A stretch of DNA of 64,000 nucleotides from a virus: the IMG/VR virus record IMGVR_UViG_3300019926_000016; one strand, 5' to 3'. A program made the translations under genes and the position numbers. Under the pieces are notes generated by a model that worked only from the letters and a program-made list of their open reading frames with translations, did no database searches and was not told the origin of the DNA. Position 1 is the first letter of the stretch, and each line of letters starts with the position of its first letter. Positions 4,102 through 44,218 of this stretch are shown in pieces.

Positions 4102-4647
4102 ATGGCAGAAACTACGAGCGATAACGGCGATGCAACGACAGACTTCGACCCGTTCGACGGGTTTAACGTAGTAGATGAACTTCCGCTTCAGCAGTTCGTG
4201 GACTTCGGCTTCGATTCGTTCGGAGAGTACATCCACATCGTTCCCGACCCGGAACGGCGACAACTTCGGGTCTACCGTTCGGTGTCGGATGCAACCGAAG
4301 AAAACGAGCGGATTTCAACGGTGATAGATGACGTGAAAATCACCTATCACTACGACAACTACCGCAACGATAGGCCGGAAGTCAACCACTTCTACCTGAC
4401 TGGAACGGAAGCGATGACGTTCCTTTCATTTCTGGACCTTCTCGGTTCGGGTCGTGAAGGACGGCTCACCTTCGAGTGGTGGGAAGAGTCAGGGATGCCG
4501 ATGATGGAAGACGAAAAGACGGACATCGAGATTCTGACTTTCACGTTCGACAAGCCGAACGGCGTGAACCGAACAGTATCGATAGACAATCCGTGGCAAT
4601 CTCCGAAGGCTCACCGGATGGCGAATCTGGATGGTGAAGTGCTATGA
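4102..4647 (+). CDS. hypothetical protein
   Basis: 181-aa acidic ORF, ATG 77 nt after the HH2 cut site. Confidence 0.75.
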   Translation: MAETTSDNGDATTDFDPFDGFNVVDELPLQQFVDFGFDSFGEYIHIVPDPERRQLRVYRSVSDATEENERISTVIDDVKITYHYDNYRNDRPEVNHFYLTGTEAMTFLSFLDLLGSGREGRLTFEWWEESGMPMMEDEKTDIEILTFTFDKPNGVNRTVSIDNPWQSPKAHRMANLDGEVL

Positions 4648-6076: not shown

Positions 6077-6144
6077 GGGCGAAACGGGGACCGGCCCCGT
6101 CGAGAAGGAGGTAGCCGCCCTTCTCCTGATGATGCCCACGGCTT
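6077..6144 (+). ncRNA. type II hammerhead ribozyme HH3
   Basis: GGGC-GAAA-CGGGG/CCCCG-TC-GAGAAGG/CCTTCTC-CTGATGA-T-GCCC-A-CGGCT; GUC triplet, predicted cut after C6101. Confidence 0.92.
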
Positions 6145-10256: not shown

Positions 10257-10289
10257 CATAAGACTTAACCCTTCGGGGCTTGAGTCTTA

Positions 10290-10329
10290 GGATGAAAGGG
10301 CGGCGGGCAGTTCGATTCTGCCTCATCCC
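10290..10329 (+). ncRNA. mini-tRNA-like element (acceptor stem plus T-arm only)
   Basis: GGATGA/TCATCC stacked on GGCAG-TTCGATT-CTGCC; 10-nt linker in place of the D and anticodon arms; AAGACTTAA about 30 nt upstream. Confidence 0.6.
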
Positions 10330-10361
10330 GTTGCGCCAATCCCCGGCGTTCGGTTCAAATA

Positions 10362-11331: not shown

Positions 11332-11405
11332 GGGCGAAACGTCGGGTTGGTCCCCCGGCGTTGGGAACGAGATGGTCGCCGTTCCCCTGATGATGCCCAC
11401 GACCA
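11332..11405 (+). ncRNA. type II hammerhead ribozyme HH4
   Basis: GGGC-GAAA-CGTCGGG/CCCGGCG-TT-GGGAACG/CGTTCCC-CTGATGA-T-GCCC; pseudoknot changed to TGGTCG/CGACCA (compensatory); predicted cut after T11362. Confidence 0.92.
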
Positions 11406-13223: not shown

Positions 13224-13290
13224 GGGCGAAACGGGATTCTTCCCGTTGTCGGTGAGGTAGCCGCCACCGGCCTGACGATGCCCACGGCTT
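13224..13290 (+). ncRNA. type II hammerhead ribozyme HH5
   Basis: GGGC-GAAA-CGGGA/TCCCG-TT-GTCGGTG/CACCGGC-CTGACGA-T-GCCC-A-CGGCT; predicted cut after T13247. Confidence 0.9.
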
Positions 13291-20833: not shown

Positions 20834-21185
20834 TCACTTAAGTCCTAACAATCGTTTAACACAAACGGTAGTTTGAACGACAGGAAAAGACGGTTCCGAA
20901 GACTTGATTCCGAAGGAGTTAAGTCAATGGACCCCGTTTAGTGTAGTAGGGAGGTCGGAAAGACAGGCTACCGCCGCTTCTCGACCACCTATTCCGGGGT
21001 CGGAACCCTCGCGGGTCACTCATCCCGATACAGTCCATTTCGAAGTCGGGGCTTTCCTCCCCGCCACTCTCAAAACTTAAGAGAGTGAAGACTGTACGGG
21101 AGACTGAGGGCTATTCGCCCTCGGAAGGTTGTGTCCCGCCACTTCGGTTGGGATTCACGCGGGGTCTGGTCGCCCCGCTCTTCGT

Positions 21186-21260
21186 GCTTGCGAAGCTGAC
21201 TGGTTCAGCACAGCCCATTTGTAAGGCTGAGTTGGGTGCGTTCGAATCCACCCGCAAGCT
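21186..21260 (+). tRNA. tRNA-Thr(UGU)-like, atypical
   Basis: Acceptor GCTTGCG/CGCAAGC, D-stem GCTG/CAGC, anticodon stem CAGCC/GGCTG with a 9-nt loop CATTTGTAA, bulged T-stem. Confidence 0.7.
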
Positions 21261-21420
21261 TTGCCGTGTTGGACTCTCCGTGGTCTGACTCGGTTTTGAG
21301 AACATCACGGAGAGGTGACGCCCGACGCCTTCACCTATTCTGGACCAGTGGGAGAAAAACCACAACGGTATCGGGAAGGAGAGCCGTTGCCCGCGATACT
21401 CCACACTAAAGAAAGGGCGA

Positions 21421-21494
21421 CGGAACCAACTTCCACGCGGCAGGAAACGTGGCTGTAGACCACGCCGTTCTCGGTTCGAGGCCGAGGGTTCCGA
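21421..21494 (+). tRNA. tRNA-Tyr(GUA)
   Basis: Acceptor CGGAACC/GGTTCCG (C1-G72, A73), CGTGG-CTGTAGA-CCACG, CTCGG-TTCGAGG-CCGAG; lacks U8. Confidence 0.8.
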
Positions 21495-21619
21495 CTCGAT
21501 GGTTTGCTCGACCTGAGCCACAATAGAGAATGGTAAAATCTGGATAGTGGCGTATCCTATGCCGACGCCAGTGACATACCGGGATACCGGGAAGAAACGT
21601 TTGGCGTCTCATAAATACC

Positions 21620-21692
21620 ACGGGAGTAGGTTAGTTCGGCCAAACTTCCTGCATTGGCGCAGGAGCCTCGGGTTCAAATCCCGGCTTCCGTA
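21620..21692 (+). tRNA. tRNA-Pro(UGG)-like, atypical
   Basis: Acceptor ACGGGAG/CTTCCGT, T-loop TTCAAAT, anticodon stem CCTGC/GCAGG with a 6-nt loop ATTGGC. Confidence 0.65.
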
Positions 21693-21693
21693 T

Positions 21694-21774
21694 TGGAGAT
21701 AGCCGAGGCGCACGGCTTGGCGAAAGTATTGCACCACTGAGTGCGCTAACGGGGTTCGAGGCCCCAGTCTCCAC
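21694..21774 (+). ncRNA. degenerate tRNA-like element without a recognisable anticodon arm
   Basis: TGGAGAT/GTCTCCA, GCCG/CGGC D-like arm, GGGG-TTCGAGG-CCCC T-arm. Confidence 0.5.
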
Positions 21775-22211
21775 TCACCCCATCAGGAGTGACATTCCGA
21801 GATGGGGGCGTTCTGCGGCGTCTCGACTGCCACTGTGGAGCCTATGCCACCTCCACCGCTGGCCGGTCAGACAAAATATCCCGAACGACAGAGCGGGATT
21901 TATGAATAAAGTATGTTGAATTGTTAAATACGTTCTCTGTCAGGAGGTGCTACGATAAGTTCAATGACAAATCATAGAACTGGGTCATAAACGGAACCGT
22001 GCAGGGTGAACCGACGCCGAGCGGCGTGTCTCAAGCTGACCACACGAATAAGTGGCGATAAGAATTGCGACACCCACCTATGCAGAATATTATCTCTAAG
22101 ACTCTTCTTGCCGTCGTTTCTTCTTCTGTATGGGCTTCACAACCCACGACGGCCTTGACGCCGACTCCTAATCAGACGGGGTAAGCACCGGGCGTCTAAA
22201 CAAATTCGGAC

Positions 22212-22285
22212 AGTCCCGTAGGGTAGCAGGCCAATCCTGTTGGTCTTTGGAACCAACGACCTCGATTCAAATTCGAGCGGGACTA
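22212..22285 (+). tRNA. tRNA-Gln(UUG)
   Basis: Canonical cloverleaf AGTCCCG/CGGGACT (A1-U72), TTGGT-CTTTGGA-ACCAA, CTCGA-TTCAAAT-TCGAG. Confidence 0.9.
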
Positions 22286-22350
22286 TTGGCCGACTCAATT
22301 GGCGTTGAGAGTCGGAAACCTCACCCAACATTACGCCACTTAAGTTACCA

Positions 22351-22878
22351 ATGACAGCAATAATCGCACTGGTCAGTGGAATCGTGAACAAATTCTCGGC
22401 GGGTAGCAATGAAGTTCAGAACGGAGCCGCCGCAGTTCGGCAAGCAATCGGAGAAGTCGAAGGTCTTCAAGAGGCTGATTTCACCGCCGTTCTCGGTGAA
22501 CCAGAGATTGTGGATAACGGGAACGTGTTCTTCACGGACCCGAAGGTAGCAGTCCCGGTCAAAGAGTCGCCGTATGACAGTTTCGACCGTCTGATGTTCG
22601 ACCTGCCTCGTGGCAGAACCGACGAAGAGTCTACGTTTTTCGAACTTCTCGATTTCTTCGGACTGGACTTCGAGACGATGGAGCAGTTGGAAGATGGAAT
22701 GATTCCAGTCTTCTACGCTAAAGGATGCTTCAATATCGACTGGGATAACCTCGATAATGGCGAAGAAGAAAACCCGGATACGGAAAACGATTCTGACACT
22801 GGAACCGATGAAGAGTCAGATAGTGCCGTCAACGTCGAAGAAACGACCATTAACTCGGGTGAAGACGAAGATGCCTAA
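22351..22878 (+). CDS. hypothetical protein
   Basis: 175-aa ORF with an acidic tail. Confidence 0.75.
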   Translation: MTAIIALVSGIVNKFSAGSNEVQNGAAAVRQAIGEVEGLQEADFTAVLGEPEIVDNGNVFFTDPKVAVPVKESPYDSFDRLMFDLPRGRTDEESTFFELLDFFGLDFETMEQLEDGMIPVFYAKGCFNIDWDNLDNGEEENPDTENDSDTGTDEESDSAVNVEETTINSGEDEDA

Positions 22879-23002
22879 CTGCCTCTGCGAACCCTGCGGC
22901 GACCACTGTTCCTGTCGGTGCCACGAGCGAAACCGGGAGACAACTTCCTCCGCCCTTCTCGAATCTGACCCTACGATTTCGAGAGAGCGGCCATTAGGAT
23001 GA
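22871..23002 (+). CDS. small Cys-rich, metallothionein-like protein (43 aa)
   Basis: MPNCLCEPCGDHCSCRCH. Confidence 0.45.
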   Translation: MPNCLCEPCGDHCSCRCHERNRETTSSALLESDPTISRERPLG

Positions 23003-23154
23003 CCTGCTACGCCGCTCGGGGGTCGTGGCCTGCGGTCAAACTTCCGGGTTTCCCTCGATTCCGACTCCCCGTGCGAGCGGGCGAGTCTGCGTAAACTTCC
23101 CTGCGGTGCTGGTTGAGAGATTGGTGTACGGCGGTTCGATTCCGTCGCTCTCAC
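22982..23154 (+). ncRNA. about 170-nt RNA with a tRNA-like domain
   Basis: GAGAGC/GCTCTC acceptor-like helix, GGCGG-TTCGATT-CCGTC T-arm, TACGCC/GGTGTA helix enclosing about 100 nt. Confidence 0.5.
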
Positions 23155-23285
23155 TTGAGGCCAAAGACTCGAAGCGCGAGAGTGGAGTCATACCAAAAGA
23201 CTCAAGCCGATGGGCCTCAACACTTTGAGTGAAGCACGTTGACGCTCGAAGTGGCGGTTCCGACAACGTGACACAACCTAAAACA

Positions 23286-24407
23286 ATGTCCCGATACGAC
23301 AACAGCGGCAACGGCGGTAGTAGCGGCGATTACGAAAACGATACCACGGTCAAACTCCAGAAGTACGCAACTCTGCGTATGGAGCCTGAAGCCGTGAAGA
23401 CTTCGAGCCACGAACAGTACGGTTCTTCTTTCATCGTCAACTTCGATGCGATGGAAGTCGTGGACGGCATCGTGTTCCAGCGAGAAGACAAGCCGCAGAC
23501 GGTAAAGGTCTTCTCTACGGACAAGTTCTTCAACCTCAACCCCGAGGATGGGCTTGTCTACGAGAACTTCAATGAAGAAGACGGCTACTCCGGTCAGATG
23601 TCTGCACAGGACATTCTCGACCACCCGCGAGTGGCTGGTTTCTCCGAGACGTTCGCTGGCGTGGATTACTTCTACAAGCCTCTCGGGGTCGTCATCGAAG
23701 AGGCCGGTGAAATCGCCACGAATGACGAACTTGAGGTTGAAGTTACCGACGACGGTACTATCGACCTTGAAGATTCCTCGATGCTCTTGTCGAACAAGTC
23801 GTGGACTCGGACGTTCGCCAAGAAACTCACCGAGGAAGGCGACGGCATCATCAACGACAACGGGAAAGACGGCGACGAGCGCGACGAAAATCCCAAGTAC
23901 GACGCTCACGAGTGGTTGGCGACAGACGAACCGACTCTTCGGAGTCAGTTGGAAGGCCGGTCGCTGGAACTGTGGGTCACTGAAGAAGAGATGGAAACCG
24001 AAGACGGAACGCAGACCTACGGAACGCCGAACCTGCTCGATGTGAAGACCGGGAACTTCGTCACTATCGACAACGGAATCTCTGACGGTGACAGTGATTC
24101 TGACGCCGACGCTGATGGCGAAAAGGCCGCCGCGACTGATGGCGGTACGAAGGCCGATTCCGGTACGGTCGAGTCGGATACTGACAGTCCCGAAACGACT
24201 GATTCGCCTGATTCGGCTGACGATTCATCTGGTCTTCCTGATGGCGTGCCGGACAGTCTGGAGAAACTAATCGACTACCTTGCCCGGAACGACAACGGTG
24301 ACGTGACGGCAGAGGATGTTCGTGACTTCTCCGAAGACGAAGTGGAGAACCCGGACGAAATCGACTGGGAGGCCGCCGCAGAAGAGGCCAACCAGCGGGC
24401 TGAGTAG
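23286..24407 (+). CDS. acidic hypothetical protein heading the replication operon
   Basis: Start at ATG 23286; acidic, low-complexity C-terminal part; an SSB/recombination role is a positional guess only. Confidence 0.8.
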   Translation: MSRYDNSGNGGSSGDYENDTTVKLQKYATLRMEPEAVKTSSHEQYGSSFIVNFDAMEVVDGIVFQREDKPQTVKVFSTDKFFNLNPEDGLVYENFNEEDGYSGQMSAQDILDHPRVAGFSETFAGVDYFYKPLGVVIEEAGEIATNDELEVEVTDDGTIDLEDSSMLLSNKSWTRTFAKKLTEEGDGIINDNGKDGDERDENPKYDAHEWLATDEPTLRSQLEGRSLELWVTEEEMETEDGTQTYGTPNLLDVKTGNFVTIDNGISDGDSDSDADADGEKAAATDGGTKADSGTVESDTDSPETTDSPDSADDSSGLPDGVPDSLEKLIDYLARNDNGDVTAEDVRDFSEDEVENPDEIDWEAAAEEANQRAE

Positions 24408-42748: not shown

Positions 42749-44218
42749 ATGGCTGAATATTGTGTTTTCTGCGGCATTGAGTTTTCTCTTCAAGAAATCT
42801 GGTATCCGTACAAACACCTCAAAAATTGCGACGAACATTCAACAATGCAAACTAACACACATATCAGCGGCTCAAGTACCAATGCAAAAGTAATGCTCCC
42901 CGAATCGGAGCTTGAAGAAGGAGTCGTAGACCAGATTCAGGAAATGATAGACCACGAATCGTTCCAAAACGATGTGGCTATTATGCCGGATACGCACGTC
43001 GGAAGCGGCGCAGTTATCGGCTTTACGATGCCTCTCGGGGAACGTGTAGTTCCGAACACAATCGGAGTAGACATTGGTTGTGGGATGTACGCCGTGAACT
43101 TCGGGAACGTGGAATACGACCGGAAGACCCTGCAACTGTGGGACGAAGAAATCCGCGAGAAAGTTCCGATGGGGTTCGAGGTTCGACAAGATAGAGCCTA
43201 CCACCTCCTGAACGACTTCCCGTGGAAGAAAGCACGAGAAAAGCTTGCACAATTCGAAGAACAGTACGGCGGTCTTCGTAGTGATGTGTGGCGGTTCGAA
43301 CCAGAACTTGCGATGGATTACTTCGAAGACCTGTGCAACCGCATCGGCTACGACCAGACTCGTGCCATCAACTCGGTCGGGTCACTCGGTGGCGGTAATC
43401 ACTTCATCGAACTTGGTCACAGCGACAAGACCGGATTGTGGGCCATCATCCACAGTGGAAGCCGTGGCCTCGGGCTAAATATTGCTCAGTACCATCAGGA
43501 ACGCGCAGTTGAACTTCGAAGTGCCGAAAAGTTCGAGAAGAACGTTCTGCCTGAATATTATCGGGAGTACGCCACCGATGAATTGAAACCGAAAGCAGAC
43601 AAAATCCGTGAAGACTTCGAGGGAACCGAAATCGGACAAGTGTTCGACAAAATCAGCCAAGCTCGTCAGGAAGCAACTGAAGCGTTCAATGATGACCTTG
43701 CATACCTCGAAGGAGCAGAGGCGCACCAATACTTCGTGGATATGATTTTCGCTCAGATGTACGCTTCCCAGTCGCGGAAGCTGATAATGTCGAAGGTCGC
43801 TGAAGTCGTCGGAGCAATCCCAAAGTGTCCTATCGAGAGCGTTCACAACTTCATCGACTTCGAGGATATGACCATCCGAAAAGGTGCGACTCGTGCTTCT
43901 GAAGGCGAAATTGCCGTTGTTCCCTTCAATATGAGGGACGGGACGCTTCTCGTGGAGGGGAAAGGAAACGACCGATGGAATAACTCGGCTCCGCACGGAG
44001 CGGGTCGGGTAATGTCTCGGACTCAAGCGTTCGATGAACTGGACCTGAGAGACTTCAAGAAAACTATGGACGGTGTAGAGTCTTCGTCAGTGACCGAAGA
44101 GACGTTGGACGAAGCACCAATGGCGTACAAGTCTTCCGGCCTTATCGAGTCGGCCATTGAACCGACCGCTGAGATAGTGGACCAAATTCGACCAGTCTTG
44201 AATCTGAAGGCAGAGTGA
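42749..44218 (+). CDS. rtcB: RtcB RNA 2',3'-cyclic phosphate/3'-phosphate to 5'-OH ligase
   Basis: MPDTHVG, GVDIGCG, GSLGGGNHFIE, IHSGSRG, HNF, RKGA, SAPHGAGR, DEAPMAYK; second possible start ATG 42845. Confidence 0.97.
   Translation: MAEYCVFCGIEFSLQEIWYPYKHLKNCDEHSTMQTNTHISGSSTNAKVMLPESELEEGVVDQIQEMIDHESFQNDVAIMPDTHVGSGAVIGFTMPLGERVVPNTIGVDIGCGMYAVNFGNVEYDRKTLQLWDEEIREKVPMGFEVRQDRAYHLLNDFPWKKAREKLAQFEEQYGGLRSDVWRFEPELAMDYFEDLCNRIGYDQTRAINSVGSLGGGNHFIELGHSDKTGLWAIIHSGSRGLGLNIAQYHQERAVELRSAEKFEKNVLPEYYREYATDELKPKADKIREDFEGTEIGQVFDKISQARQEATEAFNDDLAYLEGAEAHQYFVDMIFAQMYASQSRKLIMSKVAEVVGAIPKCPIESVHNFIDFEDMTIRKGATRASEGEIAVVPFNMRDGTLLVEGKGNDRWNNSAPHGAGRVMSRTQAFDELDLRDFKKTMDGVESSSVTEETLDEAPMAYKSSGLIESAIEPTAEIVDQIRPVLNLKAE

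Follow-up and report, generated by a model that had tools for sequence, protein, structure and literature searches.

The t-elements of Haloferax volcanii, which lie upstream of 5S rRNA, are described as tRNA-like folds within a haloarchaeal RNA that take no part in decoding and are recognised by RNase P and tRNase Z, whereby the end of the neighbouring RNA is set; both enzymes process them in vivo (PMC4326828). In plant mitochondria, in line with mitochondrial tRNA punctuation, t-elements with a GGTTCRANYCC T-arm and an acceptor-like stem are situated at mRNA boundaries and generate mRNA ends, and true tRNAs and t-elements are interchangeable as cut signals (PMC1920247). In the haloviruses HF1 and HF2, the cut of a type II hammerhead coincides with a mapped transcript end (Perreault 2011, PMC3088659). 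An acceptor stem and a T-arm, combined with a reduced D region, are also found in the tRNA-like domain of tmRNA and in bacterial YrlA RNAs. As for the HF1 group of viruses, partial tRNAs are used there as attP sites (e.g., HrrHF2_450 of HF1/HF2, a tRNA-derived non-coding element that adjoins the integrase and whose 57-nt 3' portion is identical to a host tRNA), and besides these the literature on the group mentions only 'tRNA-like sequences' needing study (PMC8707807, PMC7230728).

The 64,000-nt stretch of DNA analysed here (hereafter, the window) carries at 23114-23154 a mini-tRNA in which the stacked acceptor-like stem and T-arm of t-elements are present, the motif GGTTCRANYCC being represented by GGTTCGATTCC at 23133-23143. 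In contrast to the t-elements of Haloferax, with which we compare it through their description in the above paper, the mini-tRNA is viral, multi-copy, only about 41 nt long, devoid of anticodon and D arms, and located in intergenic cassettes of mRNAs, and its cleavage is predicted. Unlike the plant mitochondrial t-elements, it belongs to another domain of life, would depend on other enzymes, and is exchanged with self-cleaving ribozymes as well. The type II hammerheads occupy the same slots, after AAAGACTYAA and before a start codon, including the same orthologous junction in sister viruses; however, a hammerhead cuts itself and leaves 5'-OH and cyclic phosphate, whereas the mini-tRNA would need host enzymes, which would leave 5'-P and 3'-OH. 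In comparison with tmRNA and YrlA, the mini-tRNA lacks the long connecting helix, the tag ORF, the G3-U70 pair, the Ro-binding module and a match to the models, and, in contrast to HrrHF2_450 of the same virus family, it is a self-paired minihelix without a host match.

The virus and the syntenic slot

The window belongs to a tailed haloarchaeal virus, a distant relative of Hafunaviridae; megablast of 6 kb against phage records gave no match. The conserved hypothetical gene downstream of the mini-tRNA (Table 1) has tblastn matches in 49 halovirus records, and its 373-aa product is about 51% identical to the proteins of the Mincapvirus isolates HRTV-11 and HSTV-2 and 27% identical to those of HF1/HF2. 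To retrieve the syntenic region from many lineages of relatives, the 373-aa protein was aligned, and the alignment served as the query against IMG/VR and metagenomes; in the IMG/VR locus search a single 373-aa protein found no match, whereas the alignment succeeded. The closest relative is the locus L008, with a neighbouring protein 72% identical. The metagenome search yielded only Mincapvirus-like loci with 46-50% identity, none of them nearer than L008, and the search of genome contigs gave one match, a mis-binned MAG contig.

The conserved gene order comprises a LAGLIDADG gene, a reverse-strand ORF, tRNA(s), a 175-aa ORF, an 'intergenic' stretch of about 400 nt and the 373-aa gene. The mini-tRNA sits in this intergenic stretch, shortly downstream of the tRNA cluster 21186-22285, three of whose four tRNAs score 33-55 bits with the Rfam tRNA model. 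With default settings, ARAGORN misses the tRNA at 21186-21260, whose anticodon loop numbers 9 nt and whose Rfam score is 33 bits; the tRNA-Tyr called by ARAGORN at 21421-21495 has no Rfam tRNA match at E up to 10.

The Cys-rich micro-ORF begins with an overlap of its start with the stop codon of the 175-aa ORF. Its cysteine pattern (CxCxPCGxxCxCxCH) is the same in 12 related loci, the tail DPT(I/V)SRE is common to the window and L008, and the counterpart in HRTV-11 is the annotated hypothetical gp70; the product is probably a zinc-binding protein. In L014, a Mincapvirus-like contig, tandem GCTGTGCTGTACTGTT-like units (L014:2540-2720) replace the micro-ORF directly upstream of the syntenic slot. 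Further along the window, at 42749-44218, there is an intact gene of the RtcB ligase (Pfam E 4e-61).

Structure of the mini-tRNA

The mini-tRNA has no anticodon arm, and a short linker containing GG stands in for the D region. When the 41 nt are folded alone, the minimum free energy (MFE) structure is exactly the acceptor stem plus T-arm, which accounts for 66% of the ensemble, and the occurrence of a T-arm together with a local acceptor stem is far above chance. Together with the T-loop, the GG of the linker may build a tRNA elbow, taking the part of G18/G19. ARAGORN in default mode, with or without introns, makes no tRNA call at the site, the Rfam tRNA model has no match there, and at the gathering thresholds no Rfam family matches the window.

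A reading of this DNA made from the sequence only had proposed a much longer RNA (discussed below) and mentioned, as an alternative, a local pairing of TGAGAG (23114-23119) that would give a second mini-tRNA like that at 10290. It is this alternative that proved correct. According to the pairwise alignment with L008, the local acceptor TGAGAG/CTCTCA is replaced there by GCCAGA/TCTGGC, all six pairs being compensatory, and the T-stem keeps 5/5 pairs, two of them changed. The same reading was right about the absence of the alanine determinant G3-U70: the pair at 3:70 is A-U if the local helix is considered and G-C if the far one is.

Table 1. Features of the mini-tRNA locus and of related cassettes in the window
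Feature	Position	Strand	Characteristics and evidence
Type II hammerheads	6077-6141 (36.2 bits), 11332-11402, 13224-13287		Rfam
Second family copy	10290-10330	+	GGATGA / linker / GGCAG-TTCGATT-CTGCC / TCATCC
Cys-rich micro-ORF, 43 aa	22871-23002	+	M-x-x-C-x-C-x-P-C-G-x-x-C-x-C-x-C-H pattern
Spacer between micro-ORF and mini-tRNA	23003-23113	+	Alignment with L008, pair table
Spacer hairpin GGGGGTC/GACTCCC	23018-23024 / 23063-23069	+	Kept in L008
Mini-tRNA, 41 nt	23114-23154	+	Covariance model R2, MFE fold, covariation, syntenic copies
Acceptor stem of mini-tRNA, 6 bp (TGAGAG/CTCTCA)	23114-23119 with 23148-23153	+
Unpaired A and G of mini-tRNA	23120 and 23147	+	Position 7:66
Linker of mini-tRNA	23121-23129	+	TTGGTGTAC, contains GG
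T-stem of mini-tRNA (GGCGG/CCGTC)	23130-23134 with 23142-23146	+
T-loop of mini-tRNA	23135-23141	+	TTCGATT
Discriminator-like C of mini-tRNA	23154	+
Leader of the 373-aa gene	23155-23285	+	Sequence, motif counts
Leader stem TTGAGGCC/GGCCTCAA	23155-23162 / 23213-23220	+	Begins right at the predicted tRNase Z cut
AAGACTC motifs (two)	23164-23170, 23197-23205	+
ACACAACC of the leader	23271-23278	+	Precedes ATG
Conserved hypothetical gene, 373 aa	23286-24407	+	Synteny anchor across Hafunaviridae; tblastn and alignment
AAGACTYAA in the window	3711, 6042, 10260, 11296, 19620, 23197, 29450, 36466	+
ACACAACC in the window	10367, 14915, 23271, 25307, 36559	+
ACACAACC in the window	21127	-

A multi-copy family in haloviruses

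In every lineage examined, the slot holds a T-arm preceded at 9-26 nt by a 5-7-nt complement of the 3' strand, and syntenic mini-tRNA copies are present in at least nine lineages. The acceptor pairs differ by lineage (CCGAGT/ACTCGG, CCAGA/TCTGG, GGGAA/TTCCC, CCGGG/CCCGG, GCTACG/CGTAGC, GCCGATA/TATCGGC, CCGAC/GTCGG and, once more, CCGAC/GTCGG).

Since MAFFT misaligned the 5' strands where the linker lengths differ, the covariance model R1 was seeded from four syntenic copies of equal length, the copy at 10290 being left out. R1 finds 10286-10333 in the window with 24.2 bits and, in five related complete genomes, 2-5 more matches per genome that are full-length and not tRNAs. The model R2 was built from 14 copies, all from other genomes and with no window sequences among them; in the 64-kb window it finds exactly 23111-23157 and 10286-10333, both with 47.1 bits, the next match having 17 bits. 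The match at 23111-23157 spans model positions 1-47, i.e., the full length, with E of about 5e-10. The covariance search across haloviruses, which the sequence-only reading had named as a check, gave copies in the cultured viruses HF1 (4372-4418 and 2902-2949), VOLN27B (two), HSTV-2 (one) and HRTV-11 (one). ARAGORN made no tRNA call at the mini-tRNA sites of 12 relative loci tested.

The family consensus consists of a 5-7-bp acceptor-like stem with a frequent mismatch at 7:66, a linker of about 10 nt in which GG(Y)G is near-invariant, a T-stem of 5 bp and the T-loop TTCRAYT. In the model-fitted alignment of 21 distinct members, double changes are seen in 11 of the 12 pairs, the cells are paired in 90.9% of cases (51% in shuffles) and the score for covariation reaches 0.88, as against 0.18 for shuffles and 0.13-0.22 for slid controls, the fitting to the model somewhat inflating these values. 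The family of which the element at 23114-23154 is a member has multiple copies in haloarchaeal viruses of the Hafunaviridae type; it is a distinct, smaller, viral family, absent from Rfam and from the HF1 record examined, in whose annotation the copies do not figure.

Cassettes and recurrent motifs

AAGACTYAA occurs in the window 9 times versus 1.2 expected, often with an inverted partner, and it matches the 'alpha' motif of the promoter-carrying class I intergenic repeats of HF2, CTAAAGACTTAGAA (PMC8707807). The motif ACACAACC (6 occurrences in the window versus 2 expected) is situated a few nucleotides before start codons, where the relatives have GGGACACAACC-ATG, and may be an initiator or leader motif. 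The compact cassette in which most copies are found includes a stop codon, AAAGACTYAA with its inverted partner, the mini-tRNA, a small hairpin and GGGACACAACC, the ATG following 40-50 nt on. The copy at 23114 is arranged differently, with a CGTAAAC block about 22 nt upstream and two AAGACTC motifs downstream.

A 20-nt block of the spacer, CTGCGTAAACTTCCCTGCGG (23087-23106), is identical to L008:2745-2764, while the flanks differ, and CGTAAA(C/G) recurs in L011 and HRTV-11; a possible promoter box is the TAAAC of CTGCGTAAACTTCCCTGCGG, which precedes the mini-tRNA by about 22 nt. As to the rest of the spacer (23003-23113), neither z-scores nor the comparison with L008 revealed any significant or conserved global fold beyond one hairpin.

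Exchange with hammerheads and tRNAs

In three other AAGACTYAA cassettes (3711, 6042 and 11296), the place of the mini-tRNA is taken by a GGGCGAAA...CUGAUGA element. A reading of these elements as kink-turns was rejected, Rfam identifying them as type II hammerheads; the scores of the window hammerheads (28.6-36.2 bits) are just below the Rfam threshold of 37 bits, hence they are missed by the default scan. Type II hammerheads were confirmed with Rfam in the genomes G001, G004 and HF1, too.

For six relatives, the gene order of the left arm was mapped and the slots were compared. At the junction of the gene families F5 and F3, a type II hammerhead is present in the window, G001 and G004, and a mini-tRNA in G005, as was seen by inspection of the sequences. 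In five relatives, mini-tRNAs stand at the junctions ahead of F12 or, if F12 is missing, ahead of F11; the window has no F12, and a hammerhead stands after F11 and before F7. In HF1, the slot of the 23114 copy is occupied by real genes of tRNA-Asn and tRNA-Tyr, and the T-arm of the HF1-type tRNA-Tyr (GGCGG TTCGATT CCG[C/T]C) is identical to that of the window.

To our knowledge, cutting its own RNA is the only activity of a hammerhead. A tRNA embedded in a transcript is excised by RNase P and tRNase Z. Because hammerheads cut themselves and embedded tRNAs get excised, the function shared by the occupants of the slot is most simply RNA cleavage. The viral RtcB may have to do with the ends, 5'-OH and cyclic phosphate, that hammerhead cutting leaves.

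The mini-tRNA as a candidate processing signal

The comparisons above establish the structure of the mini-tRNA, its conservation and covariation, the family, and the exchange of the slot with hammerheads and tRNAs. As to cleavage itself and the enzymes responsible, we infer that the mini-tRNA most likely acts in cis as a t-element-like signal for the host RNase P and tRNase Z, a proposal in which our confidence is about even. In a read-through RNA, RNase P would cut at the 5' end, before 23114, and tRNase Z would cut after the discriminator, after 23154, both host enzymes recognising the 12-layer acceptor/T stack and the elbow. The predicted cuts would separate the upstream unit (the tRNA cluster, the 175-aa ORF and the Cys-rich micro-ORF) from the mRNA of the 373-aa gene. 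The downstream RNA would begin with UUGAGGCC, pairing with GGCCUCAA at 23213-23220, and its new 5' end would be held in a stem; the putative UUGAGG start (TTGAGG after the discriminator in the DNA) is common to L008, L010 and L011.

In HF2, long read-through transcripts are known, which are apparently processed: a transcript spanning genes 010-200 crosses the second mini-tRNA and a hammerhead, and Northern blots mostly reveal RNAs of 1-2.5 kb (PMC8707807). A 5' end, 'T-4384', was mapped in HF2 by primer extension, and the fragment 4343-4385 was cloned as a promoter candidate (PMC8707807). This is the only experimental end near a family member, the HF2 mini-tRNA being located at 4375-4415 of AF222060.2 (L061:75-115); position 4384 is G10, in the linker, and differs from the predicted cut sites of both RNase P (4375) and tRNase Z (4416). 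Possibly, transcription truly starts at T-4384, TTAGAA occupying -33 to -28; alternatively, the reverse transcriptase may have stopped there. If T-4384 is a true start, transcription from local promoters may begin within the element, which would then be able to fold in read-through RNA only. The reverse primer of the cloned HF2 'IRA' fragment (2937-2924) corresponds to the T-arm of the other HF2 copy.

Several points count against the processing model. Most of the tRNA-like elements predicted in Haloferax were reportedly left uncut in vitro in the 2012 work of Holzle et al. The tRNase Z of H. volcanii favours substrates larger than a minihelix. Besides, the syntenic copy of HSTV-2/HRTV-11 has a local stem of 5 bp and a linker of 25 nt, and R2 matches its T-arm alone.

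A wider reading, in our opinion unlikely, is that the Hafunaviridae use a modular RNA 'punctuation', with tRNAs, mini-tRNAs and type II hammerheads interchangeable in promoter-proximal slots. Local promoters would start inside the module, as at G4384 of HF2, and read-through RNA alone would be cut, and the module would insulate transcription units and set the 5' chemistry of the mRNAs (5'-P versus 5'-OH); in this case the viral RtcB could act on the 5'-OH ends.

Alternative functions

The mini-tRNA could itself be the product, either a small stable RNA or a retained 5' end of the mRNA, serving as a decoy or handle for host tRNA-binding proteins (the CCA-adding enzyme, modification enzymes or defence nucleases) or protecting the 5' end, with cleavage being secondary or absent. 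This would agree with the AT-rich box that precedes many copies by about 22-30 nt (CGTAAAC for the copy at 23114, CTTAAC at 10265), with the strict conservation of the elbow-forming features (the T-loop TTCRAYT and the linker GG), and with the fact that the HF2 RNA reaches at least nucleotide 10 of the HF2 copy. Nevertheless, the acceptor sequences vary freely between the copies, so there is no common aminoacylation identity, no terminator was found downstream of the element, and the replacement of the element by self-cleaving hammerheads at one and the same junction suggests that what the two share is cleavage; we regard a role as the product as possible, though rather unlikely.

The mapped HF2 end bears also on another explanation, namely that we are dealing with a promoter or initiator element acting at the DNA level or with a decaying tRNA remnant, the likeness to tRNA having no function in RNA. 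T-4384 does begin in the linker GG, with TTAGAA at -33 to -28, the conserved linker could serve as an initiator, and the real tRNAs in the HF1 slot make descent from a tRNA plausible. What makes this explanation quite improbable is that compensatory changes keep both stems despite the diverging sequence, which is explained neither by DNA-binding sites nor by neutral decay, and that the T-loop keeps the tRNA consensus where the neighbouring protein is only 46-72% identical.

The proposed 170-nt RNA

The sequence-only reading had seen the T-arm as part of a non-coding RNA of about 170 nt (22982-23154), closed by both its ends into a tRNA-like domain of the tmRNA/YrlA style. All the motif letters it relied on are there: GAGAGC (22983-22988), GCTCTC (23147-23152), the T-arm GGCGG/TTCGATT/CCGTC (23130-23146), TACGCC (23008-23013), GGTGTA (23123-23128), GGGGGTC (23018-23024) and GACTCCC (23063-23069). 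Moreover, the far strand in the window pairs at 6/7 positions, or at 7/8 with an A.A mismatch, and HRTV-11/HSTV-2 likewise carry a far 6-bp partner, 162 nt upstream. However, in L008 the long-range helices are broken while the local helix covaries: the acceptor GAGAGC/GCTCTC keeps 3/7 pairs, TACGCC/GGTGTA keeps 2/6 and CTC/GAG keeps 0/3, whereas the inner hairpin GGGGGTC/GACTCCC is preserved with 7/7 pairs. The far helix is absent from L009, L013 and L014, and with it fails the long enclosing stem expected of a Y RNA or YrlA. The 170-nt model was rejected because a far 5' partner exists, besides the local one, only in the window and the HSTV-2 group, while the local helix is found in every lineage.

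Chance would account for the long-range pairing equally well: of the 7-mers within 150 nt, three (from 23114, 23072 and 22982) pair 6/7 with the 3' strand. The 173-nt fold has a z-score of -1.1, 26 of 200 shuffles folding as well, and in the MFE structure of the whole 173 nt the T-arm is not formed. The 5' part of the supposed RNA is coding sequence: the 'D-loop-like' GGCCATTAGGATGAC is the end of the conserved 43-aa ORF, including its TGA stop codon, and the 5' acceptor strand GAGAGC lies within the Ser-Arg-Glu codons of the micro-ORF tail. The tmRNA and Y RNA models fail to match, as ARAGORN in the tmRNA mode with a relaxed threshold finds 0 genes, the Rfam tmRNA model RF00023 scores 11.4 bits, below the gathering score of 47, and the Y RNA families have no match in 21000-23600 at E up to 10. 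No TROVE domain was detected in the ORFs flanking the mini-tRNA. An rtcB gene is present in the window, but it is 19.6 kb away from the mini-tRNA. What survives of the tRNA mimic is the 41-nt unit; an RNA of 170 nt closed by a helix of its 5' and 3' ends is very improbable. A tempting misreading is thereby corrected, and in the present case archaea still show no analogue of tmRNA or Y RNA.

An intron-containing tRNA at 22981-23155 is almost certainly an artefact: ARAGORN at a 90% threshold does propose a tRNA-Arg(GCG) with a 93-nt intron there, and the virus does encode RtcB, but lowering the threshold adds 25 calls in the window, of which this is one (28 versus 3 by default), it requires a mismatched 8-bp acceptor, a D-stem of 3 bp and an intron located at 28/29, the default intron mode gives nothing, and the 5' half is missing in L008. 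Given the absence of a default ARAGORN call and of an Rfam tRNA match at the site, the canonical tRNA was rejected together with the intron-containing one.

An attP site, where integration makes use of a copied part of a host tRNA as in HrrHF2_450, has a precedent in the HF1-group viruses, but it can hardly be considered seriously here, as the element has its own complementary 5' strand and covaries, the copies are multiple and differ in sequence, the flanking genes contain no integrase domain, and the exact 24-mer comprising the T-arm and the 3' strand occurs in 0 of 185,579 species genomes (a collection outside which the true host may lie) and is absent from IMG/VR.

Implications

If the mini-tRNAs are cut signals, archaeal viruses borrow the tRNA-processing machinery of the host to shape their mRNAs and, in the course of evolution, swap tRNA-processing and ribozyme solutions; this would also explain the very long primary transcripts of HF2 beside the short RNAs on Northern blots. 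An unannotated RNA family would also be added to the model haloviruses HF1, HF2 and HSTV-2, in which it is directly testable. Haloarchaeal genetics, which already employs t-elements as tools, could gain from the mini-tRNA a natural processing tag of compact size.

One more tRNA-like gene of an odd kind was noticed in the record IMGVR_UViG_3300019927_000008 at L064:370-445 on the minus strand. ARAGORN designates it as 'tRNA-??? (tc)', and its match, of 30.9 bits, is to the tmRNA model and not to that of tRNA.
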